Shown one piece after another: positions 20,889 to 41,155 of a DNA stretch of 64,000 nucleotides. The number at the start of each line of letters is the position of its first letter. The stretch's first letter is position 1. The notes beneath the pieces were generated by a model. It was not told where the DNA came from. It did not search any database and saw nothing but the letters and a program-made list of their open reading frames with translations. The stretch is from Candidatus Moraniibacteriota bacterium (GTDB lineage Bacteria > Patescibacteriota > Minisyncoccia > Moranbacterales > UBA1568): NCBI GenBank assembly GCA_963778555.1, contig CAVZUR010000005.1, positions 97,756-161,755 on the forward strand. The letters run 5' to 3'. The position numbers and the translations under genes are program-made.

Positions 20889-20891
20889 CAT

Positions 20892-21851: not shown

Positions 21852-21906
21852 GTATTGCGATGAGAGCAGCGGAGATAAAAAAATCATAGAATTATTCTAT
21901 TAGCAT

Positions 21907-22875: not shown

Positions 22876-23065
22876 CAGTAGACTGACAGAAATTACCAGG
22901 AAACAAAGAAATGTACCCTGGGTGCGTCTTTCCCGTCTTAATGATTTGATGTGATATCTTGCCACGGCGCATCATATCTGATAGCTTGGAAACGTCCAAT
23001 TTGAACCATTGGAGACGTTCTTTGAACAATGCCTATTCTCAACCAACGTGCTGGAGGATAACATC

Positions 23066-24034: not shown

Positions 24035-24116
24035 ATTGCCAGTTGGGAAGCGGTAGCGGGTCACTGCAGAAGATGCGGTGACCCATTTTATTTTAAGGCG
24101 GGAGTATTATATTCCG

Positions 24117-25430
24117 CTAATCTTCGATGAGTGACTCAAAAACAACATGCTTTCCATTCCTGATGCTATCTAGTGTTGGCACCTGGCGGACTTCAATTGA
24201 AAATTCTGGGAAGGTCTGAAAATGATATTTTACCCGGTCAAGAATTTCTTTGTCATGGAAGGGGCGGTAACTTGGACCAGGGATAAACTTCAGCAGAATT
24301 TTATTTACTGACTCCTGAATGATTTGTTGTTTAGCTACAATATTTGCAAATTTAAGATTGATACTATGTATAAGGGCAATGGCGGGGAATTTGCTTCCAT
24401 CAGGGAGCTTAATATTCTGTATTTCTCGTCCTTCGAAAAAGAGTCGGCGCGTGTCTAGGCCGCATGTACATATCTCAGTTGTCCATTTGCCGATATCTCC
24501 GATATCAAATCTGATGAGGGGCATGATTCGATTATTCAGAGTGGTGATGATAATTCTTCCTGTGACATTATTTTTGACGGGACGACCTTCGTCGTCGACT
24601 ATTTCTACATAGCAGCCCGCTGGATCGATATGAAAGCCACCACGTTCCGGGCACTCCAGTCCCAAGATTCCGACCTCAGCACAGACATACTTATTATAAA
24701 TCGCACACTGAAAAACCCTCTCTAAATGTCCTCTATCCACTGTGGTCAAATACTCTGACCCACTGAGTAGGAACTTTGGTTTGAATCGTAATTTCCCAGA
24801 CTCTATTTTTTCCGCCAGAGAAAGTAAGCGGTACAGAGTTCCACCTATTGAAGAGACGCGATCTAATAATTTTTGTAGCGTTGCGATGTCCGCATCTGCG
24901 GGAAAATATGTCACAAGATCTTCGAGATGAGGTTTTCCAGTGGCATAACCATACCGTCTGAAATCCCTGACGCCGCAAAAATTCACGTAAAATTCTTCAG
25001 CGGCCATCATTTTTTGAAAGTAGACTTTTTTAGCAAAGAATTTTTTCGGGATGCCTGTGGAGCCTGATGTCACAAAAGCTCTCAGTTTATACCTCCCGGC
25101 ATTTCGTGTGACCAATTCAGGTCCGTGTTTTAACAAAATTTCGCGCGTCAAGATGGGAAAACGCTCGAATTTATTTATGTCAAAGGTATCCTTTCGGGTG
25201 AGATGTTTTTCAACGCGTTTCCAATATGGAATGTCATGGCGTGCAGAACGAAGAAGGTGTTGTAATCTGTAGCGTTGGTATTCAGATATGTCCTCGGGAG
25301 TGAGCCGATGGAGCATAAAGAACGCCTTCATATACAAAGGATGAATGAAGAACTCAGAAGCCAGTATCCTAAAGATGACGCCCTTTTGAATTTGACGAAG
25401 TAGTTTGACCTTATTCAGGATTTTTTCCAT
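24117..25430 (-). CDS. Adenylate-forming enzyme of the PaaK/CapK (phenylacetate-CoA ligase-like) family
   Basis: 'FVTSGSTGIPKKF' AMP-binding motif. Overall PaaK/CapK/F390-synthetase-like architecture, 437 aa. Confidence 0.65.
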   Translation of the reverse strand: MEKILNKVKLLRQIQKGVIFRILASEFFIHPLYMKAFFMLHRLTPEDISEYQRYRLQHLLRSARHDIPYWKRVEKHLTRKDTFDINKFERFPILTREILLKHGPELVTRNAGRYKLRAFVTSGSTGIPKKFFAKKVYFQKMMAAEEFYVNFCGVRDFRRYGYATGKPHLEDLVTYFPADADIATLQKLLDRVSSIGGTLYRLLSLAEKIESGKLRFKPKFLLSGSEYLTTVDRGHLERVFQCAIYNKYVCAEVGILGLECPERGGFHIDPAGCYVEIVDDEGRPVKNNVTGRIIITTLNNRIMPLIRFDIGDIGKWTTEICTCGLDTRRLFFEGREIQNIKLPDGSKFPAIALIHSINLKFANIVAKQQIIQESVNKILLKFIPGPSYRPFHDKEILDRVKYHFQTFPEFSIEVRQVPTLDSIRNGKHVVFESLIED

Positions 25431-25472
25431 TCGATATTTTTCAAAAAAAACCAGATTCTATAGCACCGACCG

Positions 25473-26210
25473 TTATTTAGGTGTGTCTGGTTTTTGGTCG
25501 TATCCACGAGATATAGAACTGCCGCCGTCTACCGAATAGGCGGCTCCGGTGACATAAGAGCATTTATCCGAGGCCAAAAAAAATACTACATTGGCCACTT
25601 CTTCGGGCGTACCGAGTCGCTTCATCGGTAATCTGCCTACCGGAAAATTTTTTCGCAAAAAAGGAGTATCTGTCGGACCCGGACAAACGCAGTTTATCCT
25701 GACACCGTCAGCTGCATAGCGTGCCGCCATAGACTTGGTGAACATGACAACAGCTGCCTTTGACGCGCAGTACACTGGGAATTTTAAGTCTGGAACGAGT
25801 CCGAGTTGCGAAGCGATATTGATGATTGATCCCTTAGTTTTTTTGAGATGGGACAGCGTATGCTTCGTCACAAGGAAAGTGCCCGTCATGTTGATGTCAA
25901 AGATATCACGGTATTCTTCGAGAGAAAAATCAGGGATGTCGATTTGACCTTTATAGTTTACGCCAGCGCTGTTGATAACAATATCTATTTTCCCAAATTT
26001 TCTGTGCGTCGCGTCAACCATTTTTTTTACTGAGCCCTCATCTCGTATATCAGTCTCTATAAAAGTAATGATATTACTTTCTGGTTGTTCTCTGTTACGT
26101 TTGGACGCGATAACGACATTGGCTCCTGCATTCGTGAAAAGCTGAGTAATCGCCTCACCGATACCAGTGCCTCCGCCCACTATGATGACTGTTTTTTCAA
26201 ACATGTCCAT
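25473..26210 (-). CDS. Short-chain dehydrogenase/reductase (SDR family)
   Basis: 'TVIIVGGGTGIGEAI', 'NSAG', 'YCASKAAV' catalytic YxxxK motif. Confidence 0.8.
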   Translation of the reverse strand: MDMFEKTVIIVGGGTGIGEAITQLFTNAGANVVIASKRNREQPESNIITFIETDIRDEGSVKKMVDATHRKFGKIDIVINSAGVNYKGQIDIPDFSLEEYRDIFDINMTGTFLVTKHTLSHLKKTKGSIINIASQLGLVPDLKFPVYCASKAAVVMFTKSMAARYAADGVRINCVCPGPTDTPFLRKNFPVGRLPMKRLGTPEEVANVVFFLASDKCSYVTGAAYSVDGGSSISRGYDQKPDTPK

Positions 26211-26400
26211 AGTCCGTGTGCAAAATCTTTTAGCTTAATAAAGCCATTCTTGATTCAGTATATATCAATTCGATTTTGAAAATCAATCGTTCGGGTAAAC
26301 ACCTAGATTAAGTGCTCCGTATCTCCAGCATCGTGTGCAAATCCCGAGTATAGAATCATGGGAGGTTCATCTGCGCATGTATATCTTTGGGTGTAAGTTC

Positions 26401-26414
26401 GGGGGGGGGGGGGG
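26401..26414. repeat. G14 homopolymeric tract in divergent promoter region (~75-90 bp upstream of 26490/26505 start)
   Basis: Read directly: ttc gggggggggggggg tagcc. Confidence 0.9.
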
Positions 26415-26504
26415 TAGCCTCGCATGATTTGAATCCTACTTGGTGTGGTCAACCGCCAATCATAGCCCATTTCAGTCTGATTTGGTAGGGTGAGGATAGT
26501 TAAT

Positions 26505-27869
26505 ATGGATCGTCGACTAGCCATTTTCATCGCTATCCTCGTCCTCACGAGCGCTCTCGTGGGCAGTTTTTTGTGGCATGGGGTAAAAGAGAGATCAATG
26601 GTTGTCGTGTCGAATGAAATGCCCCAGTCTGATTACCAGATAGTTTATACTGCCGAAGGCTACCAACCTGATCAGCTTGACATCCCGATCGGTTCACGCG
26701 TCGAGTTCAAAAATACCACTGAGATTCCGATGTGGACGGCTTCGGATCCACATCCAGTACACTCAGACTTCGCTTCTTTTGATGCCCAGAAGGCCTATTA
26801 TTTAGGCGAGACATTCGTTTTTCAATTCAAGGATGCTGGAACGTTCGGTTTCCACAATCATGAGAAGTCGATTCACCGTGGAATCATTCACGTGATAGAT
26901 CCCGATCACCCTTTGCAGACAATTGATAAAACGAAAGAGAGTCAGCGGTCGATGCGTGACAAGTACTTAGCCATGCTCGATCCGAATGATCCGAATTCAA
27001 TTTTTATTCTTTTAGATACCATTAAGTCCGATAGTATTCTTTCTCAGGATTATTGTCACGATATGGCACACGATCTTGGGCATCGGGCGTATGAAATGTT
27101 TGGATTTTCTGGCGCAATGACATTCAGCAACCCAGAGCATCTCCGCCATGCACCAGTAGATGATGTGTGCGGGGGTGGTTATATGCACGGGATCTTAGAG
27201 GAGATCTTTCTTCGTCGGCCAGCGTTGAAAAAGGATCCAGGCACGGTTTGTTCATCAGTACCTGATGATAGTAAACATCGCTGCTTCCATGGCGTGGGAC
27301 ACGGACTTATGTTTGTGAACAAGAGAGACTATCCCGCCTCCCTGTTGGGATGTCGACAGCTTGAACAGATCAAAAATAAAAAGCAATGTTTTGAAGGTGC
27401 TAGCATGGAACTTTTCTGGGGGAATACCGAACACACTGGAGCAGACTCACTTGGTTGGACGAAAGAGTCGATACTCCTTCCCTGTATGAACGCGAAAATG
27501 GACGAGAAGCCGTTTTGCTTTCTCTATGCGCATCTCGGATATCTGCGGACAAATCCGAAAGATTTCAATGGAGTGGTAAAGCTCTGTACACAAAACGGAC
27601 TCGAAAATAGAGATATAGACTTCTGTCTTAAGGGGGTTGGTGTCACAATGATTAAGCATTTTACTGAGCAGCATTTAGAGCAAACCGAGAAACTCGTTGA
27701 AGAACTAGACGCTGAAAAAAAATACTCCTACTATAGTGGCGTGATTGCTCATGCGAATCTCATGAAAGTGAGTGGGGTCAGGCTGAGTACTTTTTGCGAT
27801 GCCCTCAGGCACGATGCAGTGCTTTGTAGAAATGCTCTACGCGATGCCCCGAGTGTTCAAGATAATTAA
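26505..27869 (+). CDS. Secreted/membrane-anchored protein with N-terminal cupredoxin-like domain and Cys-rich C-terminal domain
   Basis: Signal anchor 'RLAIFIAILVLTSALVG'. 'IPIGSRVEFKNTTEIPMWTASDPHPVH...TFGFHNHEKSIHRGIIHV' β-sandwich/cupredoxin-like. Many conserved Cys in C-terminal half. Confidence 0.45.
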   Translation: MDRRLAIFIAILVLTSALVGSFLWHGVKERSMVVVSNEMPQSDYQIVYTAEGYQPDQLDIPIGSRVEFKNTTEIPMWTASDPHPVHSDFASFDAQKAYYLGETFVFQFKDAGTFGFHNHEKSIHRGIIHVIDPDHPLQTIDKTKESQRSMRDKYLAMLDPNDPNSIFILLDTIKSDSILSQDYCHDMAHDLGHRAYEMFGFSGAMTFSNPEHLRHAPVDDVCGGGYMHGILEEIFLRRPALKKDPGTVCSSVPDDSKHRCFHGVGHGLMFVNKRDYPASLLGCRQLEQIKNKKQCFEGASMELFWGNTEHTGADSLGWTKESILLPCMNAKMDEKPFCFLYAHLGYLRTNPKDFNGVVKLCTQNGLENRDIDFCLKGVGVTMIKHFTEQHLEQTEKLVEELDAEKKYSYYSGVIAHANLMKVSGVRLSTFCDALRHDAVLCRNALRDAPSVQDN

Positions 27870-27903
27870 TATTTGATATTTTATGCTAAATTTTGAACTA
27901 TCA

Positions 27904-29163
27904 ATGAAGCAACGCAAAGTGTTGGTGCTTTTTGCCACCTCGATTACTATTGCTTTTGGAGTATATTATTACTTTAATTTCAATTATTGTCGGACGCATG
28001 TTCCGGCGCGGAGCGAATTTGGTAAATTGCCAGTCTTGGATCCAGAAAAAGTAGATGGGAGTTATACGTTGCTTTCCCCCTTTACAGCTGGTAACAACCT
28101 TACGGATGAGGGAAACGTATATCTCGTCGATCTCTTCGGATTTCCGGTACATATCTGGAATACGAAATATCAGACCCTGTATGCTCAATTGCAAAAGAAC
28201 GGAAGCATCATTGTTTCGATGATTACTCCGTCTGATCTCAATAGCGCTCCGGGCGGAGGGAAAACGGGCTTGATACAGGAGCTGAATTGGAATGGCGAAG
28301 TACTCTGGGAGTACAGGAATGATTTTATCCACCATGATTTCGAGATTCTTCCTAACGGAAATGTCGCCTTATTGGTATGGGAAAGGGCGCCCGGCTCCTT
28401 TGCTGAGAAAGTACAAGGTGGTCGTCTAGAAGAAGGGAAAAACTTGGATGAGGTCTGGGTTGACGGCATCATCGAGGTCGATAGGGATGGCCAGGTGGTG
28501 TGGGGCTGGCATGCCTATGATCATCTACGTCCCGAGGCCTATGTGCTTAGTCCATACACCCCGAGAAGCGAGTGGACGCACGCAAATTCTGTGCGCTATT
28601 TTGAACGTAACGCATTGAATGGTCAGGCTGGATACCTACTGAGTCTGCGGCATTTGAATGAAGTTATCATGATTAGCCGGGAATCAGGAGATGTTTTTTG
28701 GGAAAGTCCGAAAGGTGCCTTTACGTATCAGCATGACGCGACGATTTTGCCCAATGGAAACATACTGGGATTTGACAATGGACTGTTCCGTTCCCAGGAC
28801 CGGCCTCTGTTGTGGAGTCGCGTCATTGAGATTGACCCGCTTTCGAATAAAATCATCTGGGAATTTAACGGTGGGAAAACTGGTCCGGAGAAAGCTCGGT
28901 TTGCCGCAAGTATCATGAGCGGCGCGCAGAGATTATCGAATGGCAATACACTCATAGTTGATGGGCCAAAAGGGCATCTCATTGAGGTGCGTCCAGATGG
29001 CCGTCGGGTATGGGATTTCATAAACCCTCACACGTCGATCAATACGGGATCCTTTGAAAATAACAGTATTTTCAAAGCCCGGCGTTACTTGCCTGAAGAG
29101 ATAGAGTGGCCGGAAAACATTTCAGCTCCGTTACCACAAGGCGCTCTTTTTTGCAGAGTATAG
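27904..29163 (+). CDS. Arylsulfotransferase (ASST)-like β-propeller protein with N-terminal membrane anchor
   Basis: Repeated 'NGN' propeller blades ('ILPNGNVALLVWE', 'ILPNGNILGFDNG', 'LSNGNTLIVDG') resembling the ASST family. Confidence 0.45.
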   Translation: MKQRKVLVLFATSITIAFGVYYYFNFNYCRTHVPARSEFGKLPVLDPEKVDGSYTLLSPFTAGNNLTDEGNVYLVDLFGFPVHIWNTKYQTLYAQLQKNGSIIVSMITPSDLNSAPGGGKTGLIQELNWNGEVLWEYRNDFIHHDFEILPNGNVALLVWERAPGSFAEKVQGGRLEEGKNLDEVWVDGIIEVDRDGQVVWGWHAYDHLRPEAYVLSPYTPRSEWTHANSVRYFERNALNGQAGYLLSLRHLNEVIMISRESGDVFWESPKGAFTYQHDATILPNGNILGFDNGLFRSQDRPLLWSRVIEIDPLSNKIIWEFNGGKTGPEKARFAASIMSGAQRLSNGNTLIVDGPKGHLIEVRPDGRRVWDFINPHTSINTGSFENNSIFKARRYLPEEIEWPENISAPLPQGALFCRV

Positions 29164-29279
29164 TCGGAATTCCATAAGTATAGTGTCAATATTTCCATTG
29201 TAATCTCATGGAGGATAATCTTCCGTCATTGCACCTGTGTGGTATCTTACTGGTAGAGTAAAGCACTTGATTCGTTAGT

Positions 29280-30245
29280 GTGCCTATGGGAAATACAGGA
29301 AAAAAGAAGATTCTGGTAACGGGTGGAGCAGGATTTCTGGGATCGCATCTCTGCCGGAGACTTCTCAGTGAGGGGCATGAAGTCCTGTGCGTGGACAACT
29401 TCTTCACGGGGAATAAGGACAATGTCTTGGATCTGCTCTCCCATCCGCGCTTTGAGCTCTTGCGGCATGACGTGACATTTCCTTTGTATGTGGAAGTGGA
29501 CCAGATTTATAATCTCGCCTGCCCCGCTTCGCCGATCCATTATCAGTTTGATCCGGTCCAGACGACAAAAACCTCGGTTCACGGTGCGATCAATATGCTG
29601 GGCCTCGCCAAACGGACCAAGGCGCGTATCCTCCAGGCCTCCACATCAGAAGTCTATGGCGACCCTGAGGTACATCCGCAGACCGAAAGCTATTGGGGGC
29701 ATGTGAATCCGATTGGCTTTCGCTCCTGCTATGACGAGGGCAAGCGCTGTGCTGAAACGCTCTTTTTCGATTACTATCGCCAGCATCAGCTCGACATTCG
29801 GGTTGTCCGTATTTTCAATACCTATGGACCAGGCATGCTCCCGAATGACGGCCGGGTTGTCTCGAACTTTATCGTCCAAGCCCTCCAGAACAAAGACATC
29901 ACCATCCATGGCGACGGGTCGCAGACGCGCAGCTTCCAGTATGTCGACGACTTGATCGAGGGCATGATTCGGATGATGAATCAGGATGGCTTTGTCGGTC
30001 CAGTGAATATAGGGAATCCGGGCGAGTTCACGATCAAGCAGCTTGCTCAAATGGTGCTCCGATTCATCCCGGAAAGCACCAGCCAGATCACTTACAAACT
30101 ATTGCCGGCCGATGACCCGCTCCAGCGCCAGCCGGACATTTCGCTCGCCAAGGAAAAACTGGGAGGCTGGGAACCACAGGTGAGACTTGAAGTAGGACTG
30201 AAGAGCACAATCGATTACTTTCGGCAGAAACTGCCTCTTTTGTAA
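29280..30245 (+). CDS. uxs: UDP-glucuronate decarboxylase (UDP-xylose synthase), NAD-dependent epimerase/dehydratase family
   Basis: '[20 protein letters not shown]...[12 protein letters not shown]...[45 protein letters not shown]' near-textbook UXS. Confidence 0.85.
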
Positions 30246-30310: not shown

Positions 30311-32911
30311 GTGGCATTACCGAATAACATAATTTATTGCGCTATGGAGTCGTCCGAAAAGCCATCGTTTGCACGTTTTGGGAGTCAGGCTAATTTTGCA
30401 TCGAGTGACCGGGTGAATGGGGGAGTGGTCCGAACCGAGACGCCGCTTCGAACCGGTACCGGGACAGCCGCACCGTCCCGCGTGCAGACCGCCAAGGTAT
30501 TTGATCTCATCATCACCAGCGTGCTCGTCGTGCTCTTCGCAGGTATCCCAGTCTTTTTTACGGGACTCACATTTCAAGGTATTGCATTTGAAAAACAGAT
30601 CTTCTTCTACTGCTGTCTTCTGATCGGGTTCGTCGCGTGGGTCTCGAAGGGGGTCATGACGGGTGAGATGCGTATCCGCCGGACGCCACTGGATATCCCC
30701 ATCGTTCTCTTTTGGCTGTTCTCGATCGCAGCGACGGTTTTCTCAGTTGACCGATGGCACAGTTTCTGGGGATTCTTCGGCGACCCATCGCGCGGTTTCA
30801 TCAGTCTGACGGCTTTGGTCCTGGCCTACTTCTTCATCATGAGCCATTTCACCGAACGGCGGAGGAATCTCATGCTCGGATCATTCCTCGTGTCGGGAGT
30901 ACTTGTTATCCTGTGGAGTTTCTTGGTAGTGATGAAACTTCGCTTTCTCCCCGCGAGCTGGGAATCGATGGCACCCTTGTCCTTGGTCGGTTCGATGTCG
31001 ACGCTGAGCCTCTTCTTGGCCCTCCTCATCCCGCTCATGGTGACTGCCTTGTTCCTCTTGTTTCGTGAAGGATCAGGGGCCTCATTGATGTTGCGTCGGA
31101 GCGGGGCAGCTGTCCTCGGTGTCGCTTTGCTGCTCGATTTATTCTTGCTCCTCGCGCTCTATCCGTTCGTGTCGTGGCCGGTCGTTCTGGGTGGATTGGG
31201 ATTTTTCCTCATCTACATCCTCGCGCAGATTGTCCGTCCAGCCAGCGAATTGACCTGGATGCCGATGGTGATTTTCGTCGTCGTCCTCGCCTTTCTCATG
31301 ATCGGCCAAAACCAGCTCGTCCGGGCGACGCTGCCAATCGAGGTGACCCCGAACATGAAATTGTCCTGGCAGATTGCCAAGGAAGCACTGAGCGCCAATT
31401 TCCTCTCTGGCACTGGCTTGGGGACATACGGCTATGATTTCTCACTCTTCCGTCCGCAGGAGTTCAATGGCAATGCGCTTTACACGCTGCGCTTCTATCA
31501 GGGGACGGGTCTCGTCTTTGAAGCGCTGTCGACCGTTGGCATTGTCGGAACTATTCTGATGCTCGTTATCTGGTTCTCCTTCTTGTCGGTCGGACTCTAT
31601 CTCCTCACCATGGATAAGGCCAAGAACAAAGTCGCTTCGCTCGGCTTGTGGTCGGTCGCGGTTATGCTGTTCATCTCCGGCTTCGTGTCGCCCATCAATT
31701 CCACGATTCTCATTCTGAGCGTCCTGCTCTCGGCACTTGCACTCGCGACCCTCTTGCAGGAAAGCGGATCCGAAGAGCGGCATTGGGAACTTTCGTTCCG
31801 GGCGACACCAAAGTTCGCACTGGCCCTAGCGTTCGTATTCATGGTGGTCTCCGCAGGCGTGGCATTCCTCTTCGTCTTCATGGGTAAGGTGTTTCTGGCC
31901 GATATTTCGGCGGGCCGGGCGTCAAGGCTTCCGGCATCAGTCGAGGAGACCGTTCCCAAGTACTTGAAAGCCATTCAGCTCTATCCGCAGGAGGGTCGGT
32001 ATTTCACCCGTGTTGCCCAAGAATACATGGCGATCGCCAATGCCGAGGGTGGCAAGAGCGCTGAAGAAAGAGATGTGAACAAGATCGCCTTCGCGGTCCG
32101 TGAAGGCGTGGCCGCTGGTGTCCGCGCCCGTGACCTGATGCCGAACGATGTGCTCGCGACGGAGGCCCTCGGATTGGTCTATGAGAACGCGAGTATTTAC
32201 GCGACAGACGCGTTGCCCAAGGCGGAAGAGATGTATGCGCGTGCCCTGGAACTCGAGCCGCAGAATCCGCTGTTCTCCATCAAGCTCGGTCAGATCAGCC
32301 GGCTCAACGCGGATGGGAAGCAGGATCCAACTGAGAAGGCAGCACTCTTTGCAGCGGCCAAAGCCTCTTTCGAGAAGGCCATTGAGCAGAAAGCTGATCT
32401 CGCGGTCGCGCATTACAATCTCGCAGTCGTCAATTCCCGATTGAAGGACTATGACGCGGCCATCCGCTCCACCTCTCAAGCGATCCGTCTCGCGCCGTCG
32501 AACCTCTCCTTCCGCTATAATCTCGGGCTGCTCTATCAGGAGCGCAATGGCGAGGGTGATCGCAACCAAGCCGAAGCACTGTTCAAGAACGTGCTTGAAG
32601 CTAATGACCGGCTCATCGATGTTCGGCTCTCGCTCGGTCTTCTGTACGAGTCCGAAAGCAAGCGCGACCTGGCGATGGAGCAGTACGAAAAGATCCTCGT
32701 TCTCATCCCAGAGGATGAAAAAGTTTCGGCCAATGTGAAGCAGACCAGGACTCAGATTACACAGATCATCGAGAATCTTCGCTCTGGCAAAGGTAATATC
32801 CCGGCGGGGAGCAGCCTCGCTGAACCGGGTCCGACCACGCCAACGACCGTCGCACCGTCCGTTCCGACGACGAGTCAAAGCGAGTCACTCCTGAATGGGC
32901 CGACGCGGTAG
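30311..32911 (+). CDS. Polytopic membrane protein (O-antigen ligase/Wzy-like) with C-terminal TPR-repeat domain
   Basis: About 12 predicted TM helices in first ~520 aa. C-terminal TPR repeats ('AIQLYPQEGRYFTRVAQEYM', 'AVAHYNLAVVNSRLKDYDAAI', 'LSFRYNLGLLYQERNGEGD'). Confidence 0.6.
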   Translation: MALPNNIIYCAMESSEKPSFARFGSQANFASSDRVNGGVVRTETPLRTGTGTAAPSRVQTAKVFDLIITSVLVVLFAGIPVFFTGLTFQGIAFEKQIFFYCCLLIGFVAWVSKGVMTGEMRIRRTPLDIPIVLFWLFSIAATVFSVDRWHSFWGFFGDPSRGFISLTALVLAYFFIMSHFTERRRNLMLGSFLVSGVLVILWSFLVVMKLRFLPASWESMAPLSLVGSMSTLSLFLALLIPLMVTALFLLFREGSGASLMLRRSGAAVLGVALLLDLFLLLALYPFVSWPVVLGGLGFFLIYILAQIVRPASELTWMPMVIFVVVLAFLMIGQNQLVRATLPIEVTPNMKLSWQIAKEALSANFLSGTGLGTYGYDFSLFRPQEFNGNALYTLRFYQGTGLVFEALSTVGIVGTILMLVIWFSFLSVGLYLLTMDKAKNKVASLGLWSVAVMLFISGFVSPINSTILILSVLLSALALATLLQESGSEERHWELSFRATPKFALALAFVFMVVSAGVAFLFVFMGKVFLADISAGRASRLPASVEETVPKYLKAIQLYPQEGRYFTRVAQEYMAIANAEGGKSAEERDVNKIAFAVREGVAAGVRARDLMPNDVLATEALGLVYENASIYATDALPKAEEMYARALELEPQNPLFSIKLGQISRLNADGKQDPTEKAALFAAAKASFEKAIEQKADLAVAHYNLAVVNSRLKDYDAAIRSTSQAIRLAPSNLSFRYNLGLLYQERNGEGDRNQAEALFKNVLEANDRLIDVRLSLGLLYESESKRDLAMEQYEKILVLIPEDEKVSANVKQTRTQITQIIENLRSGKGNIPAGSSLAEPGPTTPTTVAPSVPTTSQSESLLNGPTR

Positions 32912-33007
32912 AGTCAGGGAAATTACCGGTTGCAGTCTCTCGTCTGTTCGCTGCGAAGTGCAAAAATTTCCAGTTGTAGCAGCAGGTCAGCTCCGAAAAC
33001 AAATACC

Positions 33008-33352
33008 ATGCGCAATATGCATCGCTTCGGTTCAGCCGTTCTGAAACGTCTTACCTTTGTCTTTGTTGTGGTGGTGATGCTCGTACCATTCGCAGCCTTC
33101 GCGGGTGTGATAGATGAAGCACAGCCGCTCACTGTCGGTCTGACGAATATCCTTGACTTTTTATTGTCGATTGTGGGCGTGGTTGGTATAATTGGGCTAG
33201 TGATTGCGGGTATCCTGTATTTCTCCGCTGCCGGCGACATGCGACAACTCGCTCTCGCCAAAAAAGCAACGCTCGGATCAATCACTGGCATTATCATCGC
33301 ACTCGGCGGATATGCCCTCATTCGGACCATTGGCGTGCTCTTCGCTACTTGA
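33008..33352 (+). CDS. VirB2/TrbC-pilin-like small secreted double-TM protein, array member A
   Basis: Signal peptide, hydrophobic helix, 'GILYFSAAGDMRQLALAKKA' loop, second helix. Confidence 0.55.
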   Translation: MRNMHRFGSAVLKRLTFVFVVVVMLVPFAAFAGVIDEAQPLTVGLTNILDFLLSIVGVVGIIGLVIAGILYFSAAGDMRQLALAKKATLGSITGIIIALGGYALIRTIGVLFAT

Positions 33353-33416
33353 AACACACATAAACATTCGCCTCAGCTACTGAATGTGGCTGAGCACTGA
33401 AAGGAGGTGAGAGGTT

Positions 33417-33788
33417 ATGCAAAAATTCAAAAAAGTTGCCTTCGGTGCTCTGAACGGGCTGCTCTTGCTCGCGCCGGCTGTGGCTCATGGTCAGTCTTGG
33501 GATGCTTCTATCGGCGCCGCACAGGCCAATTCGGGTCTGCCGACGGGATCGATATCGGGTATCATCATAGCGACCCTGACCTGGCTCCTGGGAATTCTCG
33601 GCTTTCTCGCGATGATTGGGTTTATCATCTCGGGTATTCTCTATCTCACCGCCGCTGGCAATGAGACGCAGATCGAAAAGGCCAAGAACGCTATGACATA
33701 CTCCATCATTGGTGTCATCGTAGCGCTCATGGGCTTTGTGATCATTCAAGCGGTTGATCTGTGGTTGGGGACGTCAACGACTTTCTAG
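33417..33788 (+). CDS. VirB2/TrbC-pilin-like protein, array member B
   Basis: 'MQKFKKVAFGALNGLLLLAPAVAHGQ' signal peptide; '...FIISGILYLTAAGNETQIEKAKNAMTYSIIGVIVALMGFVIIQAV'. Strong SD 'aaaggaggtgagaggtt' before ATG. Confidence 0.6.
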   Translation: MQKFKKVAFGALNGLLLLAPAVAHGQSWDASIGAAQANSGLPTGSISGIIIATLTWLLGILGFLAMIGFIISGILYLTAAGNETQIEKAKNAMTYSIIGVIVALMGFVIIQAVDLWLGTSTTF

Positions 33789-33794
33789 TTCGTC

Positions 33795-33850
33795 CTTTCC
33801 GATCGAAAAGGGAACACGACTCGCATCAGCGGGTCGTTTTCTTCGGACAG
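33795..33850 (+). terminator. Hairpin plus T-run after array member B (repeated after member C at ~34435-34490)
   Basis: 'gaacacgactcgcatcagcgggtcgttttcttc'; identical element downstream of member C. Confidence 0.4.
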
Positions 33851-34056
33851 AAACTGATTAGTCTCATGTCTTGAGTGTCTCAGACTGGGTAATGAAAAAG
33901 AATGTTGACAGTTGTGTTCAGATGTTTTAGACAGGCTTTTTAAGAAGGGATATACTAGAAGCATGTAAAAGTGCGTTGATTGTCTGGTAACGAAATATCT
34001 ATTCACATTCGCCTCAGTCACGTCGGTGACTGAGCACTGAAAGGAGGTGAGAGGTT

Positions 34057-34428
34057 ATGCAAAAATTCAAAAAAGTTGCCTTCGGTGCTCTGAACGGGCT
34101 GCTCTTGCTCGCGCCGGCTGTGGCTCATGGCCAAGCGTGGGACGCTTCTATCGGCGCCGCGCAGGCCAACTCGGGTCTTCCGACGGGATCGATATCGGGT
34201 ATCATTATATCGACCCTAACGTGGCTCCTGGGAATTCTCGGCTTTCTCGCGATGATTGCATTCATCATCGCGGGTATTCTCTATCTCACCGCGGCTGGTG
34301 ACGAGTCCCAGATCGAAAAGGCCAAGACGGCCATGACATACTCCATCATTGGTGTCATCGTGGCGCTCATGGGCTTTATCATCATTCAAGCGGTTGATCT
34401 GTGGTTGGGGACGTCAACGACTTTCTAG
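34057..34428 (+). CDS. VirB2/TrbC-pilin-like protein, array member C (recent tandem duplicate of B)
   Basis: About 90% identical to B including 5' UTR/SD and 3' terminator. Confidence 0.6.
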   Translation: MQKFKKVAFGALNGLLLLAPAVAHGQAWDASIGAAQANSGLPTGSISGIIISTLTWLLGILGFLAMIAFIIAGILYLTAAGDESQIEKAKTAMTYSIIGVIVALMGFIIIQAVDLWLGTSTTF

Positions 34429-34672
34429 TTCGTCCTTTCCGATTCGATTAGGGAACACGACTCGCATCAGCGGGTCGTTTTCTTTTGGGATGGGGCCAGT
34501 TTGCCCTTCGAGCACGAACGAGATTGACGGTGAAAAAAACCATTGACAGGATCGCTAACATGCTTTGGACAGGCGCAGTAGGAGGGGGTATACCACTACA
34601 CCAATATATTGGTGTAGTGGTATACTGAAACCATACAAAACTGGGTAAATTGTCTAACTCGCTGCGTGGAGT

Positions 34673-35053
34673 ATGTTTATAGAGAAAAATACAGGAACCG
34701 TGTTTATGACAGCCACGTTCGTGGCGCTAGTTGTGTTCGCTGCTTTCGGATTGACCTCGGAAGTCTGGGCTCAGTGGAATATGGCCGACCCGAACCTTGC
34801 CGACTCGGGCCTTTCGGATTCGACGGCCTATGACATCCTCGTGACGCTCATGAATTGGCTTCTCGCCATATTGGGCTTCATCGCCATTATCGCCTTTGTG
34901 ATCTCCGGCATGCAGTACTTGACGGCGGCGGGAGACGAGGGGTTGGCGGAGCGGGCCAAGAGCAATTTGAAATACTCCATCATCGGCATCATCGTCGCGC
35001 TCTCGGGCTATATTATCATCGTGACGATCAGTGACGTGTTCCTGTCGGCCTAA
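34673..35053 (+). CDS. VirB2/TrbC-pilin-like protein, array member D
   Basis: '...FVISGMQYLTAAGDEGLAERAKSNLKYSIIGIIVALSGYIII'. Confidence 0.55.
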   Translation: MFIEKNTGTVFMTATFVALVVFAAFGLTSEVWAQWNMADPNLADSGLSDSTAYDILVTLMNWLLAILGFIAIIAFVISGMQYLTAAGDEGLAERAKSNLKYSIIGIIVALSGYIIIVTISDVFLSA

Positions 35054-35093
35054 ACCTAACAGTGGGAGGCCAGTATCAAAGGCAGGATCAGTT

Positions 35094-35528
35094 ATGAGCG
35101 GCCGGAACAGTATGCACACAAAAACGAACACCCCCCAGCGAATACAGGTTTTTCCGAAGATTTTTTATTTCGGGGTTTTTCTTTTGTTTGGGGTATTGTT
35201 TCTCGGACCAACAGAGCTCTTTGCACAAACGTGTCCGGCTGGATTTAGTGCGGAGAATGGCACGTGTTGGCCTACCAATACAGGTCTCTCAGAGGCGTCG
35301 CTCTATGATATTATCGTGGCGGTCATGAACTGGATTCTCGCGATTGTCGGTTTCATCGCTATCATTGCCTTCACCATCTCAGGTGTCCAATATATGACCG
35401 CGGCCGGGGATGATTCGCAGATTGAAACCGCCAAGCGCAACATGAAGTATTCCGTCGTCGGTGTTATCGTCGCGCTTTCGGGCTATATCGTCATCGCGAC
35501 AATCGATAATTTGTTCCTGTCAGCCTAA
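35094..35528 (+). CDS. VirB2/TrbC-pilin-like protein, array member E, with short Cys-containing ectodomain
   Basis: 'QTCPAGFSAENGTCWP' then '...FTISGVQYMTAAGDDSQIETAKRNMKYSVVGVIVALSGYIVI'. Confidence 0.55.
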   Translation: MSGRNSMHTKTNTPQRIQVFPKIFYFGVFLLFGVLFLGPTELFAQTCPAGFSAENGTCWPTNTGLSEASLYDIIVAVMNWILAIVGFIAIIAFTISGVQYMTAAGDDSQIETAKRNMKYSVVGVIVALSGYIVIATIDNLFLSA

Positions 35529-35590
35529 GTGGCTCAGGTGTCAGTGCACCCAGAGAAAGTCTCAAAAAAACAGCCAGTCACTCGGATAGC

Positions 35591-36400
35591 ATGAACACAA
35601 AAAGAAACCGGCGACCCCATACTGAAATCTTCCCAAAAATGATTGTTTTTGGTGTTGTTCTGTTGTTCGGAGCATTGTTTCTCACGCCTTCTCCGGCGTC
35701 GGCCCAGAGCTGCGTCGGGACCTGTGTGCCGAACTCTATCGGCTGCCAGGGTACGCTGATTCCGGGTCCCGGTACTTGCCCAGATCCGGCGAATGAAGAA
35801 TGTTGTTGGGGCGGTGCGATCCCTGATCCAGTACCGACTGGGGGTGGTCCAGCAGCTTCAGCTGGTGGCGGACCGGTCTCTATGACGTCTACAGACGTCT
35901 CCAATCCGCTCAGCTTCACCACAGTGGATACGCTTTTGACGAACGTTCTCGGTTTCGTCCAGAGCTTCATGGTCATCCTCTCCCTCATCTTCATCGTCAT
36001 CGGCGCAATCATGTATATCACCTCGGGTGGGGACTCGGGCCGTATCGAGACGGCCAAGAAGGCCATCGCCGCGGCTCTCATCGGCCTGGCCATCGGTATT
36101 GCGGCCCCGGCCTTCCTGAAAGAGATCGCCCAGATCCTCGGCTGGACCGATGTCCCGAGCAATGTGAGCGGTGCCAAGTCCCTCCTCGAAATCGCCGGCG
36201 GCGTTCTGAACTTCCTCCTCTCTGTCGTCGGCATCATCGCCCTCATCATGCTCGTCGTCGGTGCCCTCATGTATCTGACCGCGGCCGGGGATGAAGATCG
36301 GATCGATACCGGCAAGAAGATCGTGAAGTACTCCATTATCGGCATTACGATTGCTTTGGCCGCCATGGTCTTGGTGCGGCAAGTCGCGGGGTTTTTCTAA
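35591..36400 (+). CDS. Pilin-like array member F: Cys-rich ectodomain plus two tandem pilin-like double-TM modules
   Basis: 'CVGTCVPNSIGCQGTLIPGPGTCPDPANEECCWGG'. Module 1 'GAIMYITSGGDSGRIETAKKAIAAALIGLAIG'; module 2 'GALMYLTAAGDEDRIDTGKKIVKYSIIGITIALAAM'. Confidence 0.55.
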   Translation: MNTKRNRRPHTEIFPKMIVFGVVLLFGALFLTPSPASAQSCVGTCVPNSIGCQGTLIPGPGTCPDPANEECCWGGAIPDPVPTGGGPAASAGGGPVSMTSTDVSNPLSFTTVDTLLTNVLGFVQSFMVILSLIFIVIGAIMYITSGGDSGRIETAKKAIAAALIGLAIGIAAPAFLKEIAQILGWTDVPSNVSGAKSLLEIAGGVLNFLLSVVGIIALIMLVVGALMYLTAAGDEDRIDTGKKIVKYSIIGITIALAAMVLVRQVAGFF

Positions 36401-36414
36401 ACTGATACGAGGCT

Positions 36415-38241
36415 ATGCCATTTCGAAATCTTTTGGTCATCATCTTCCTCTCCGCTGTCTTCGGACTGTTCATTCCGGGCTTGACCCAGGCGCAGACCTG
36501 CCAGGAAAATGGCGGTGCCTGCCGTCCGGGCTGGGTATCGGGTTGCGCTAACCCAGAGACGCCTGTGTCTGGAACTTGTCCGGCTGCCCCTTCAAATGCT
36601 CCTCCGGGTGGTGTGCTCATCTGTTGCCGCGCGAGCCAGTCAGGAGTGATGAATGCACGGATAGCGGAGGAGTCTGTCGAAGCGCTTACTATTCGACGGA
36701 GTTTCCGAACGCTGAATGGCCCGCTCAACCTGCCTGTGGATATAGCACTGCAGAAGTCACATCATCGGCACGCTGCAGCAACTTTTTTGCGCTCTGTTGC
36801 GTCCCGCCGCCGAATCTCGGCGCCAGCTGCAATGGTGGATCCGGCACTTGTCTGTCGGCTGGGAGCTGTGCGAGTCCGGTCGCGTCGGCTGACTGCGTTG
36901 GGGGGGCTGTGTGCTGTCCACCGCTCTCGCCGAATGTTGGAACTTCGTGCGGTGGTACCGCCACGTGCCAGTTGACCTGTAGCGGCACACCGTCATCCTC
37001 GCCAACATGCGTCGGTGGAACCATGTGTTGTACACCGACTCCGCCCCCTCCTCCCCCCCGCCGCCGCCGGTGGACAATGTTGGAACTGCCTGTGGTGGGA
37101 CGGCCACCTGCCAATTTGCTTCGAGTTGCGCTGGGACGCAAGCTCCCTCCGCCATTTGCACGGGATCGACCGTGTGCTGCACGCCGACTCCCCACCGCCA
37201 GGCGCGAATGTCGGGACCGCCGTGCGTGGGGGATACTGACCGGCGGTGCGGGTGTCTGCGAATTTACGTCGCTCTGCAGCAATACGGAAACCTCGGGGAC
37301 CTGCACAGGGGGGACGGAATGCTGTATCTTTTCTGCTCCGCCTCCGCCGCCGCCTGTCTCGACCTGCGCTTCAGTCGGTGGTACCTGCGCGCGGGCCGTC
37401 GATGGCTGTCCGGATGGCGAGGTGCCTGGCGGCACGTGCAGCGCCAATCAGCTCTGCTGTGCAGCGGCTTCCTGTGCTGCCATCGGCGGTACGTGTACCC
37501 GGATCGATGCGGGTTGTAGTGCTGGTGAGCGGACGGGGATCTGCAGCGCGGGCCAGATGTGCTGCGCGCCGACGAGTACGGCTGTCTGTGAACCGCTCGG
37601 TACCTGTGTGCCTGCCGGGGGCTGCCTCACTGGGGAAGTGCCAGGCGGCATCCTGTGCCGATCCCGGCCGGATGTGTTGCGCTGTGTCCGCACCGGCTGG
37701 TGGTGGGCCGCTCAATGTTCCCGGGAGCGCGCTCAATCTCCCCAATCCACTCCTCTTCAATGACTTCAATGGGCTTTTCATCGCAGCTTTGAGTTCGCTC
37801 CAGAATCTCCTCGTCATCCTCTCCCTCATCTTCATCGTCATCGGCGCAATCATGTATATCACCTCGGGTGGGGACTCGGGCCGTATCGAGACGGCCAAGA
37901 AGGCCATCGCCGCAGCTTTGATCGGCCTGGCCATCGGTATCGCGGCTCCGGCCTTCCTGAAAGAGATCGCTCAGATCCTCGGCTGGAGCGATGTCCCGAG
38001 CAATGTGAGCGGTGCCAAGTCCCTCCTCGAGATCGCCGGCGGCGTTCTGAACTTCCTCCTCTCTGTCGTCGGCATCATCGCCCTCATCATGCTCGTCGTC
38101 GGTGCCCTCATGTATCTGACCGCGGCCGGGGATGAAGATCGGATCGATACCGGCAAGAAGATCGTGAAGTACTCTATTATCGGCATTACGATTGCTTTGG
38201 CCGCCATGGTCTTGGTGCGGCAGGTTGCGGGGTTTTTCTAG
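36415..38241 (+). CDS. Pilin-like array member G: long Cys/Pro-rich repetitive ectodomain (CxxGGxC...GEVPGGxC...CCA repeats, poly-Pro linkers) fused to the same double pilin-like C-terminal module as F; reading frame switches ≥4 times (36640, 37060, 37200, 37650)
   Basis: ORFs 36415-36975, 36576-37763, 37007-37519 and 37246-38241 each carry the same Cys-repeat pattern in different frames. Last ~426 bp (37815-38241) nearly identical to 35975-36400. Confidence 0.5.
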
Positions 38242-38299: not shown

Positions 38300-38557
38300 A
38301 TGTTTTATGTTTATGTGTTGAAGAGTCAGAAAGATGGTAAAGGATACATCGGTTCCACGAATGATCTCAAAAGAAGACTTTCCGAACATCAAGGAGGACA
38401 AGTGACTTCGACAAAGTCTCGCCGTCCTTTCAAACTAGTCTATTACGAGGCTTATTCAGCCGAGACTGATGCCAGGAAACGGGAGGAAAATCTCAAGTTA
38501 AAGAGTCGCGCCTATGCCCAACTACTGAAAAGGATTTCAGAAAGTCTCAAAGTATGA
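38300..38557 (+). CDS. GIY-YIG nuclease-family small protein
   Basis: 'MFYVYVLKSQKDGKGYIGSTNDLKRRLSEHQ' is a canonical GIY-YIG motif. Confidence 0.8.
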   Translation: MFYVYVLKSQKDGKGYIGSTNDLKRRLSEHQGGQVTSTKSRRPFKLVYYEAYSAETDARKREENLKLKSRAYAQLLKRISESLKV

Positions 38558-38640: not shown

Positions 38641-40107
38641 CTAAGTGCACTGCTCGATCATGACCTGGAGACTGCCGGGTCCTTGGCGGTGGAGATCCGG
38701 CGCCGCGTAGATGTTTCGGCCCAGGGTGATGGTCAACGGCTGCGACGTCTCGATGCGGCCCTGTTCGCCGATGAAGAGGGGCTTGTATCCCCACTCCTTG
38801 GCGAGGACGAAGAAGCGTCCATAGGGCTGCGTCTCCCGGGCGATTACCTCGCTCGGGAGCGGGGCTCCCGGTACTGGTTGCGGTCTCCAGTATCCGCCGC
38901 CATAGCCGGTAAAGGCTTGCCCTTTGTTGTAGCAGGTATTGATCCTGCCCAGGGCATCCATGTCGCAGGAGTAGTCCAGTGACATGTCGGTTTTTTTCAG
39001 GAAGTGCTGCTGCACTGTCCCACTCACCTGGAATTTGTATTTCCCAGGCGGCAATGGCGCATCGAGTGTCAACCGGCCATTGGTCGACTCACTTGGCACA
39101 TAGTCCACTTCCAGATAGGGGGAGCAGACCGAGGCCATGGCGACGGGTGTCGCCGGAGCCGGTGCAGTTGCCTGCCCCATGCTCGTTGACGCCGTACTCG
39201 GTGCCGTCGTGACCGTGGTCGCGTCAGCACCGATCTTGGCGCATTCTTCGAACTCGGCCGCGGTCGGGATGACCGGGGCGATCTTCTTGGCTGGGTCGCC
39301 CTTAGCTTTTGCCTCGAGCTTCGCGTAGCAAGCATTGCGCTCGCCTTGCTTGGCGGTTTCGGCTGCCATTTCGGCTTGGACTCGGGCGGCTGCGGTGGCC
39401 GCTTCGGCACGCCGCTTGGCATCCGTCGACCGATCATCGATCGACTTCAGGCCCAGCTTGTGCTGAGTCCAGGCGACCAGATCCTTCTGATATTCGCGAA
39501 TACCAGGAGTCCAGCTGCCCAGGGTCCAGACGATCACAGCGATCAGGATAGTCGCCGAAAAGTTCAGGACGAACTTGCCGCTCCGATTGGTGTACATGCA
39601 CCAGACGGTGAGGAACACCGATGCCGCGAGCATGACGATGGCACCGACGGGATTGCTCCCGATGGGCCAGAGCGCCAGGACGAAGAAGGGGAGTGAACCA
39701 TAGAGCGCCACCATTGCGGCGAATCGGCCGAGCGCGTAGATCCACGTTTCTGCCCACTTCTTGCCGTCCGTTACGCTCAGTCCAACTTCGCCCCCCGGTT
39801 GCGCAGCGACGAAAGCCACACCCGCTGGTCCGAAGATGTTCAGCGGCGTCAGAATGAACGCCACGGCGGTGAGCAGGAACGCCATTGCGGCGATCCAGTT
39901 GAGGTGGCGGAGAGAGTCGGGGAACCAGACGTTCACCACGGCGCCCACGATGAGGGCGGCGAAGTACGCGAGGACGAAGAGTCGGGTGACCCTGAACCAG
40001 CCACGGTGGAAAGAGAACCACCGACCAGTCCAGTCCGCATTCACGAGAGGACCGAAGTACTCCAAGGGTGAAACATTGGGAACAGGGGGAACAGGTTGCG
40101 TTGCCAT
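38641..40107 (-). CDS. Hypothetical polytopic membrane protein with Ala/Pro-rich linker and C-terminal extracytoplasmic domain
   Basis: 488-aa ORF. About 6 TM helices in N-terminal 230 aa. Low-complexity 'KRRAEAATAAARVQAEMAAETAK'. Confidence 0.5.
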   Translation of the reverse strand: MATQPVPPVPNVSPLEYFGPLVNADWTGRWFSFHRGWFRVTRLFVLAYFAALIVGAVVNVWFPDSLRHLNWIAAMAFLLTAVAFILTPLNIFGPAGVAFVAAQPGGEVGLSVTDGKKWAETWIYALGRFAAMVALYGSLPFFVLALWPIGSNPVGAIVMLAASVFLTVWCMYTNRSGKFVLNFSATILIAVIVWTLGSWTPGIREYQKDLVAWTQHKLGLKSIDDRSTDAKRRAEAATAAARVQAEMAAETAKQGERNACYAKLEAKAKGDPAKKIAPVIPTAAEFEECAKIGADATTVTTAPSTASTSMGQATAPAPATPVAMASVCSPYLEVDYVPSESTNGRLTLDAPLPPGKYKFQVSGTVQQHFLKKTDMSLDYSCDMDALGRINTCYNKGQAFTGYGGGYWRPQPVPGAPLPSEVIARETQPYGRFFVLAKEWGYKPLFIGEQGRIETSQPLTITLGRNIYAAPDLHRQGPGSLQVMIEQCT

Positions 40108-40120
40108 TTCTGACTACTCC

Positions 40121-41155
40121 TTAGTTGAACTTGGCGGCGACACCGAGGATGATGACGCCGACCACGATTGTGATGACGAAAATCCTCGTTAACCGCTTGT
40201 CTTTCTCTTCGGCGGTCATCCGGCCGGCTTCGCGCGCCTCATGACGTTTGATGGCCGGGTCTTGATGCTGCTTCACGAGTGCGAGGAGAAAGGCTTGGAA
40301 CGCATTGCGGCGTCCTTGCTTTTCTGTCTCAGGTGCGGCGTCGATCGCTGCCAGGAGCTCTTGAGCCGGACGGCCCGCGAGTATTCTGGCGACGTTTTCC
40401 TTACCGATGGCGACTTCCGCCAGTCCGATATGGATTCCCGTTTCGTGATCGTTGCACCACCCTACCACCTTGGTCCCGAATGCACTGGCCTTGTCCGCGG
40501 CCGCTTTAGCAGCCACCGCAGCCTTGTCCTCGAGGTTGTCGAGGATATGGAGGCTTTGCAGGGTCTCGGCGACGGCCTTGATCCGCTTCGCTTCCGCGCC
40601 CTTGCCGCTCGTGACGAGCCAGGTGAGGGCGCTGATGACTTGTGCGCCCTTCTGATTCAGCTTTTCGTCCCACTCCGAGACGATCGGCGTTTCGCGCGTC
40701 CTCTGGCCAGTCGGATCTTTGGGATCCTTGTGCTGGGTGAAGCCGGTCGTCTTTTTGCGCTTGATCGTCGTCACTTCGACGGCGACTGTTTGCATGAGGC
40801 GTTTGATGGCCCCAGGCGGCAGCGCAGCGACGACTTTGGGAAAGATGTGCGCTTCAGTAGCTGCGACCTTGTACTCGAGAGCACAAGTGCCATCGGCCAT
40901 ATAGAGTGTCGAGAGCCACGCGAGAAGCGCGTAGAGCTCGCCTTCCTGTTCCCGGTTCTCACTGATGACCTGGGGGCCGGGCGGAGAAGACGGAATCTTT
41001 GCCGATTCGGCTTTTACGTTTTTGCTTCCAGCAATCCATCGGTAGAGCTTCATGGCGTACTCGGCCATATCGCCCCCAGAGAGGAGGCCGCTCTCCATAA
41101 TCGCTTTGACATACTTCGTGGGCATGATTGAGTCCCTTTCTGATCTTTCGATCAA
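40121..41155 (-). CDS. Hypothetical protein with C-terminal tail anchor (TM)
   Basis: 344 aa. C-terminal 'IFVITIVVGVIILGVAAKFN'. Confidence 0.45.
   Translation of the reverse strand: MIERSERDSIMPTKYVKAIMESGLLSGGDMAEYAMKLYRWIAGSKNVKAESAKIPSSPPGPQVISENREQEGELYALLAWLSTLYMADGTCALEYKVAATEAHIFPKVVAALPPGAIKRLMQTVAVEVTTIKRKKTTGFTQHKDPKDPTGQRTRETPIVSEWDEKLNQKGAQVISALTWLVTSGKGAEAKRIKAVAETLQSLHILDNLEDKAAVAAKAAADKASAFGTKVVGWCNDHETGIHIGLAEVAIGKENVARILAGRPAQELLAAIDAAPETEKQGRRNAFQAFLLALVKQHQDPAIKRHEAREAGRMTAEEKDKRLTRIFVITIVVGVIILGVAAKFN

Follow-up and report, generated by a model that had tools for sequence, protein, structure and literature searches.

What does a bacterium make with seven consecutive genes for small two-helix membrane proteins resembling VirB2/TrbC pilins, when no VirB4 gene lies near them? 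This question is raised by the pilin array (genes g1–g7) of Candidatus Moraniibacteriota bacterium found on contig CAVZUR010000005.1, within the 64,000-nucleotide stretch analyzed here, which we call the window. Our answer, which we consider probable while well short of certain, is that the locus is the pilin operon of a VirB4-type type IV secretion system (T4SS) of a Candidatus Moranbacteria bacterium. Among patescibacterial secretion machines, only the T4SS with VirB2-like pilins has been shown to be essential for epibiotic growth, and it also gives a first hint that a monoderm T4SS might carry a pilus.

The seven genes lie in tandem on one strand with the architecture given in the preliminary description of this DNA, that is, a signal peptide, a variable ectodomain and two hydrophobic helices joined by a loop. 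All seven products score above the gathering score of 26.6 of the Pfam T4SS_pilin model PF18895 (26.8–57.7 bits, E 6e-6 to 1e-15), g6 and g7 each matching it in two separate stretches. The TrbC/VirB2 model PF04956 (gathering score 27.9) is passed by g1 alone and gives no match at E ≤ 1 for g2–g7. Among NCBIfam models, the closest is NF045849 (Mbov_0395, a pilin-like conjugal transfer protein of Mycoplasma integrative and conjugative elements, ICEs), with a cut-off of 40 bits, for which g3 scores 42.0, g5 39.4, g2 36.8, g4, g6 and g7 29–31, and g1 9.8 bits (E 0.6). Judged by hydrophobicity, every product carries an N-terminal signal-like segment followed by hydrophobic segments on either side of a polar loop; this loop, earlier called invariant, is conserved only, with the motif [YF]x[TS][AS][AG]G(D/N)x5-6[AG]K. 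An AlphaFold2 (AF2) model of g6, with 60 homologues in the input and a mean predicted local distance difference test score (pLDDT) of 80.8, contains four long helices forming two hairpins (amino acids [aa] 112–144/149–183 and 198–230/235–268, pLDDT >90), together with a signal helix, a three-strand module over six cysteines (pLDDT ~90) and a disordered linker. The VirB2/TrbC-like T4SS_pilin assignment made in the preliminary description, for which a search with pilin hidden Markov models (HMMs) and structure prediction had been suggested as checks, is thus upheld; the search against PF04956 and T4SS_pilin was positive and the AF2 model of g6 is compatible with membrane hairpins. The seven genes fall into six classes, A–F, of which E (g6) and F (g7) are covalent tandem fusions of two hairpins.

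A pilin array far from virB4 can still be tied to a T4SS by comparative synteny. Scanning one genome per GTDB species with a profile of the double module gave 125 relatives; the locus counts given here refer to the best 80 of them, whose open reading frames (ORFs) were called and then searched with the module HMM and the window proteins. Nearly all of these 80 loci are from metagenome-assembled genomes (MAGs) of Candidatus Moranbacteria/Moraniibacteriota. In 12–13 of the 80 (L037, L046, L054, L056, L063, L064, L070, L073–L076, L082 and L086, ~10–16 kb in each), a pilin gene and a double-module pilin gene stand directly upstream of genes for a PrgI-family protein (VirB3-like, PF12666), c15 (a conserved gene of 228 aa), VirB4 (606 aa; PF03135 CagE_TrbE_VirB, PF19044 and PF12846) and c21 (a small membrane protein). 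The same methyltransferase and solute-binding-protein genes precede most loci of both configurations. A single ancestral locus thus seems to occur in two states, one compact and attached to the T4SS genes, the other expanded and detached from them. In Southlakia epibionticum, the PF18895 pilins SEML1_0014–0019 are essential and are encoded inside the T4SS cluster (PMC10633639). Across 3,035 surveyed Patescibacteria genomes, VirB2-like pilins occurred in 1,948 VirB4-containing assemblies, in just 1,135 of them near virB4; the survey also counted 441 VirB2-like arrays of 2–11 pilin genes, most abundant in Microgenomatia and Saccharimonadia (PMC12102498). Pilin arrays of this kind are therefore already described. 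A 2025 review (PMC12857230) also highlights the arrays as a potential pilus of a monoderm T4SS. We note that 3' of the compact T4SS cluster lie ComM-like, G5+DPBB (RpfB-like lytic transglycosylase), KsgA and UvrD-like genes; the lytic transglycosylase of these loci could play the VirB1 role.

The array itself is conserved in an orderly manner. At least four pilin genes are present in 50 of the 80 loci, typically with the double-module gene last, and the class order across arrays is fixed as A-B-(B/C)-D-E-[F]. In 33 of the 80, nusA follows ~3 kb downstream, and after it, just as in the window, come the genes for pyrophosphatase, trigger factor and ClpP. Within the subclade of the window, the order is TPR membrane protein, A-B-B-C-D-E-F, two minus-strand genes of no known function, and nusA; the two minus-strand genes are kept as positional neighbors between array and nusA in closer relatives only. 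With each module of the relatives assigned to its best-matching window class, class A genes (g1-like, 90–118 aa) open most of the arrays listed or take second place behind a long-ectodomain pilin; B-like genes come next after class A, class D usually stands just before the double-module gene, and in double-module genes the first module always finds its match in the first and the second in the second. Full-length identity to orthologues is 60–72% for class B (g2/g3), with g2 at 64–72%, the top value among the classes, 45–65% for class A (g1), 36–49% for g4, 38–45% for g5, 24–61% for class E and 23–42% for class F, with NusA, at 73–84%, as a comparison. The locus lies on the chromosome and keeps its synteny throughout Candidatus Moranbacteria. 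A tblastn search of g1 and g2 against 72,556 plasmids gave no match, and the array therefore has no close conjugative-plasmid relative. We also considered a mobile or conjugative element and rejected it on account of the housekeeping neighbors (nusA, ppa, tig, clpP, valS and tsaD) and the cross-species synteny.

This order bears directly on another explanation, namely that the array is a store of interchangeable pilin variants for antigenic or host-range variation, with one or few used at once and g7 as a phase-off copy. Bartonella and Anaplasma have arrays of VirB2 paralogues for which such a use of variants has been proposed. The window paralogues are just 35–65% identical in the pilin core, and N-terminal parts reach up to 772 aa among relatives. 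Two gene pairs hint at recent duplication or gene conversion: g2 and g3 lie in a duplicated 479-nt unit (33364–33843 and 34005–34484, terminator-like hairpin included) with 92.5% DNA identity, and the 3' 446 nt of g7 are 96.4% identical to g6. In addition, some of the g7 frameshift sites are located in or near C or G runs, and a similar speculation has been put forward (PMC12102498). Every class, however, has a same-order positional orthologue in most species' arrays listed, class B is as conserved as the housekeeping neighbors, the division into single- and double-hairpin classes points to distinct roles rather than interchangeability, and five frameshifts would be unworkable as a reversible switch. 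We therefore regard this explanation as unlikely, and the antigenically variable system suggested in the preliminary description is disfavored by the positional orthologues and by the conservation of class B.

The coordinates of the array and its neighbors are collected in Table 1. The array contains nine pilin modules, one in each of g1–g5 and two in each of g6 and g7, instead of the eight counted before. The earlier array start at 32930 is that of an ORF opening with TTG, and the true start of g1 is likely the ATG at 33008; likewise, g5 likely starts at the ATG at 35112 and not at the ORF start 35031. Within the terminator-like elements, the hairpin part occupies 33816–33837 after g2 and 34457–34478 after g3. 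The N-terminal part of g5 has a two-cysteine motif, CPxGF...GxCxP. In g6, a signal peptide is followed by a six-cysteine module (aa 41–72), a linker and the pilin hairpins (aa 112–183 and aa 198–268), and in reconstructed g7 by nine six-cysteine modules and two pilin hairpins. The public annotation of the contig (228.6 kb) calls g6 from an internal Met.

Table 1. Pilin array and adjoining features in the window (positions in the 64,000-nt stretch).
Feature	Position	Strand	Basis or remark
Membrane protein, WaaL (O-antigen ligase) fold and C-terminal TPR domain	30311..32911	+	96 nt 5' of g1
Pilin array, seven consecutive genes g1–g7	33008..38241	+	ORF reading of the window
g1, class A pilin, 114 aa from the likely start, single module, TrbC/VirB2-like	33008..33352	+	PF04956 31.4 bits, PF18895 26.8 bits
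g2, class B pilin, 123 aa, candidate major subunit	33417..33788	+	PF18895 E 1.9e-9
Terminator-like hairpin and T-run 3' of g2	33816..33847	+	9-bp stem, 6 G-C pairs, then TTTCTT
g3, class B pilin, 123 aa, tandem duplicate of g2	34057..34428	+	93% protein identity to g2
Terminator-like hairpin and T-run 3' of g3	34457..34488	+	
g4, class C pilin, 126 aa	34673..35053	+	PF18895 E 4.8e-11
g5, class D pilin, 138 aa from the likely start	35112..35528	+	PF18895 E 3.3e-11
g6, class E pilin, 269 aa, double module	35591..36400	+	two PF18895 stretches, 56.9 bits
g7, class F pilin, ~605 aa reconstructed, frameshifted	36415..38241	+	three-frame reading, tblastn of intact orthologues
Multi-pass membrane protein, 488 aa, function not assigned	38641..40107	-	no Pfam match
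Protein, 344 aa, function not assigned	40121..41155	-	no Pfam match

Several points weigh against the assignment of this locus to a T4SS. Searching large ORFs for T4SS ATPase domains and all window ORFs with HMMs derived from T4SS genes in the related loci revealed no homologue of VirB4, PrgI, c15 or c21 within the window, in agreement with the absence of VirB4 genes stated in the preliminary description. To our knowledge, a patescibacterial T4SS pilus has never been seen experimentally. A Foldseek search of the g6 model against the PDB returned nothing at E ≤ 0.001, only generic helical bundles, the best pilin being the Aeropyrum conjugation pilus 8dfu at a non-significant E of 4.1 (TMt 0.56); a sequence-profile search of the PDB with the double module as query gave a single designed protein (E 0.11) and nothing relevant. 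Ectodomains of 100–770 aa would not fit a tightly packed VirB2-type shaft, and the major, minor and tip roles that we propose below are drawn only from conservation and expression signals read in the sequence.

Alternatively, the hairpin proteins of this lineage might be T4SS-independent, membrane-anchored surface proteins, possibly modified by or working with the WaaL-fold/TPR enzyme and the glycopolymer cluster upstream. The array is apart from VirB4 not only in the window but in all 33 nusA-linked loci, and the large ectodomains are more adhesin-like than shaft-pilin-like. The WaaL-fold/TPR gene is located directly 5' of the array here and in 10–13 loci, and a PMT_2-type glycosyltransferase gene is nearby in six other loci, immediately 5' of the array in L040, L041, L047 and L059. 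Against this stand the contiguity of the double-module family with the PrgI–VirB4 genes in the 12–13 loci described above and the membership of PF18895 pilins in the essential Southlakia T4SS cluster. Moreover, the 5' neighbor varies by lineage, a solute-binding-protein gene being within the 10-kb flank in 46 of the 80 loci, and the WaaL-fold gene follows TagF-like and IspD-like polymer genes, so that its adjacency to the pilins may be incidental. On balance, we think it improbable that the array works without a T4SS.

The product of the gene 5' of the array (855 aa in the public call, P0132) was earlier described as an O-antigen-ligase-like/TPR protein and a conceivable glycosylation partner. 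A WaaL-type polytopic fold and TPR matches are indeed present, whereas a match to a Wzy_C-type HMM is not: the full product matches TPR families only, the N-terminal domain alone of 12 orthologues matches no HMM, and a Wzy_C annotation is absent from all of the 120 best homologues. Residues R123, R124, D147, R148, W149, H150 and R309 are invariant in the family. The gene also lies 3' of TagF-like, IspD-like and sugar-nucleotide genes and therefore may simply encode a wall-polymer ligase; we mention pilin glycosylation by the WaaL-fold enzyme as a hypothesis only. As a separate observation, the GC content of the window at ~16000–28000 is 42–48%, compared with 51–62% in most of the remaining window. 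This low-GC stretch holds two TagF-like glycerophosphotransferase genes and a glycosyltransferase family 2 gene, and just downstream of it, at 27883–30245 (GC 49%), are an arylsulfotransferase-like gene and a UXS-like epimerase gene. The stretch may be a horizontally acquired surface-polymer island that ends at the WaaL-fold gene.

Returning to the pilin operon of a VirB4-type T4SS, which we favor, let us consider how its products might be used, taking the steps of insertion, cleavage, extraction and polymerization from established VirB2 biology. The pilins would enter the cytoplasmic membrane via Sec, signal peptidase would cleave them, and a membrane pool of hairpins would accumulate, from which a VirB4/PrgI machine encoded elsewhere in the genome would extract and polymerize the subunits into a surface filament or conduit serving the episymbiotic lifestyle. 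Class B (g2/g3) would be the major subunit of the shaft, with classes A, C and D as minor subunits, and the double-hairpin classes E and F would serve as low-copy initiator or tip subunits carrying the cysteine-rich, perhaps adhesive modules outside. The g2 and g3 products look like the major subunit because they are the most conserved, have a canonical Shine-Dalgarno sequence and their own terminator-like hairpins, and form a tandem duplicate. The Shine-Dalgarno sequence AAGGAGGTGA is perfect at g2, and class B alone has a strong one; in L005, the g2 and g3 copies are identical to each other. In the known conjugative pili (F and T pilus structures), the N-terminus faces outward, and E and F therefore would show their modules on the surface. 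The bulk of the E and F ectodomains in turn makes a low-copy place at the tip or base more likely than one in the shaft.

The ectodomain modules of E and F, which precede the hairpins, are of a disulfide type. The single g6 module and the nine of reconstructed g7 all contain six cysteines, no more and no fewer, and end in CC, but are otherwise very divergent in sequence; the cysteine spacing is 3-6-10-7-0 in the g6 module, and the module spacings include 6-5-8-5-0 and 6-6-9-5-0. Among the double-module genes of related loci, 67 of 95 have at least four cysteines in the N-terminal part. A Pfam search with the window's own cysteine modules gave no match. Searching 1.84 billion representative proteins by phmmer with the g7 ectodomain gave three weak matches, one of them real (P0253, a double-module pilin); the modules are not a broad sequence family. 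Two homologues outside the window do reach defensin models: P0115 (aa 38–68) and P0120 (aa 20–51) score 26.4 and 26.5 bits with PF13841 against 22.2, and with PF00711 (cut-off 21), P0120 passes at 22.0 and P0115, at 20.8, falls 0.2 bits short. The modules share with beta-defensins (PF00711, PF13841) the six cysteines ending in CC and a three-strand sheet predicted by AF2; they differ in their bacterial origin, in occurring in up to nine copies, in being attached to a membrane hairpin and in having no Pfam match in the window. We make no claim of membership in the defensin family, and the resemblance may be convergent. One could go further and imagine the E and F hairpins as the dedicated tip or nucleation complex of a monoderm T4SS pilus whose arrays of defensin-like, disulfide-locked modules bind the host envelope or breach it locally, with the WaaL-fold/TPR enzyme, or PMT_2 in other lineages, adding a glycopolymer to the pilins, the whole being an adhesin or penetration device specific to episymbiosis in Moranbacteria; this picture is a long shot.

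The state of g7 needs separate consideration. As assembled, the gene has no single ORF and at least five frame changes along its coding path, which runs in frame 1 from the start to ~36645, in frame 0 to ~37055, in frame 2 to ~37190, in frame 1 to ~37225, in frame 0 to ~37655 and in frame 1 to the stop at 38241. Intact orthologues of 627–723 aa exist elsewhere (P0001–P0003), and their tblastn matches on g7 are colinear, in frame 1, then 0, then 1. The frame-corrected gene follows a stop-free path on which the junction-spanning modules are preserved. An ectodomain of up to 400 aa, as given in the preliminary description, is therefore found after frame correction and not in the sequence as assembled. 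In the assembly, g7 is inactivated by these frameshifts, which makes it either a genuine pseudogene, with g6 as its backup, or the product of uncorrected indel error within a repeat. We give somewhat less than an even chance to the latter, that is, to assembly or polishing errors in an organism that encodes an intact ~605-aa class F pilin. The full six-cysteine pattern of all nine corrected modules, junction modules included, fits this possibility, as do several shift sites that fall on or close to short runs of C or G (C7, C4, G5) and their location in the highest-GC, most repetitive stretch. A second paralogous gene, the YcaO gene at 12153–13662, is likewise split over three frames, which fits errors arising where reads map multiply. 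On the other hand, the first shift (~36645) lies outside any homopolymer, the long single-copy genes of the window (1382, 890 and 866 aa) are intact, g7 and the split YcaO gene each have a redundant paralogue nearby, as real pseudogenes would, and in the public annotation of the contig, too, g7 is reduced to its last 189 aa (P0010). Programmed frameshifting in g7 was ruled out by the five shifts in both directions, and the split YcaO gene likewise ruled out g7 as the sole frameshifted gene; the homologue-based frameshift screen covered the syntenic part of the window. The split YcaO gene (+), with frame breaks relative to its paralogue at ~13143 and ~13450–13555, that paralogue at 8808–10277 (-) and a nitroreductase-family gene at 11398–12141 (+) together resemble a gene cluster for an azoline/thioamide-type ribosomally synthesized and post-translationally modified peptide.

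A few further observations concern the surroundings of the array and its relatives. Between g7 and the next gene is a stand-alone GIY-YIG gene of 85 aa (38300–38557, +), homologues of which occur at differing positions in six related loci, suggesting a mobile, homing-type element. In more distant Moranbacteria, the gap between array and nusA is occupied by unrelated genes, including one for an SPFH/Band 7 protein. In some Moranbacteria genomes, extra lone double-module pilin genes of 320–840 aa are found at other loci (L017, L026, L039, L055, L079 and others), adjoining, for example, 2-oxoacid:ferredoxin oxidoreductase-like genes, and some isolates appear two to three times in the scan. Many MAGs with a Moranbacteria-type locus (L008, L011, L013 and others) are titled ‘uncultured Bdellovibrionales bacterium’, which looks like a labelling problem. 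Elsewhere in the window, a 1382-aa protein (1481–5629, +) contains a Peptidase_S74 intramolecular chaperone domain of the kind found in endosialidases and the tailspikes of phages, and may be a surface fiber or adhesin, and a 262-aa protein (13682–14470, +) contains a pretoxin-HINT domain, a hallmark of polymorphic toxin cassettes.

VirB2-like pilin arrays in Patescibacteria are already published (2023, 2025). In the literature searched, we found no account of fused double pilins as conserved last genes, of repeated six-cysteine ectodomains on double pilins, or of the fixed Moranbacteria class order in an array that sits by nusA detached from virB4; these three features appear new, and the view in the preliminary description that the double-module and cysteine-rich variants are undescribed has held up to this extent. 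The Moranbacteria operon offers a parts list with a fixed class order, a clear candidate for the major subunit, and fused double pilins with repeat ectodomains.

Lastly, we compare the locus with known systems. Type IV pilus operons offer an analogy only, with an abundant conserved subunit, low-copy specialized subunits and a large terminal adhesin-bearing subunit; their fold and assembly machinery are unrelated, and the window pilins lack a class III prepilin signal. Compared with WaaL and the PglL-PilO O-oligosaccharyltransferases (Wzy_C superfamily), the protein 5' of the array differs in having no Wzy_C match and an added 300-aa TPR domain, and it may instead serve the neighboring teichoic-acid-like polymer pathway. 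With the VirB2/TrbC/TraA pilins of diderm T4SSs (PF04956), the window proteins share a long signal peptide and two hydrophobic helices with a short polar loop, g1 passes the TrbC model, and related loci adjoin VirB3-like and VirB4 genes; in contrast, the diderm systems have one pilin gene per system, no large ectodomain and no fused dimers, and their pilus crosses an outer membrane. Mbov_0395 and MMCAP2_0565 of Mycoplasma ICEs are likewise small two-helix membrane proteins of a monoderm, MPF-FATA-type T4SS, but they are single-copy ICE genes for conjugative DNA transfer, with neither arrays nor ectodomains. The VirB2 arrays of Bartonella and Anaplasma also arose by tandem amplification of VirB2-type genes, but their copies are thought to be immune-evasion variants, whereas those of the window are differentiated, order-conserved orthologous classes. 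The VirB2-like arrays of Patescibacteria (Southlakia; PMC12102498) likewise have PF18895, with or without PF04956, and small, tandem, divergent hairpins with Sec signals on the chromosome of a monoderm episymbiont. An array there requires at least two tandem PF18895/PF04956 genes, and the window has seven; many of the published arrays are also away from virB4. In the Southlakia pilins (supplement), PF18895 occurs once per protein, and their genes are located within the T4SS cluster, whereas the last two genes of the window array encode double hairpins with cysteine modules. The window array further differs in a class order fixed throughout a lineage, the Moranbacteria, and in its site by nusA, away from VirB4.

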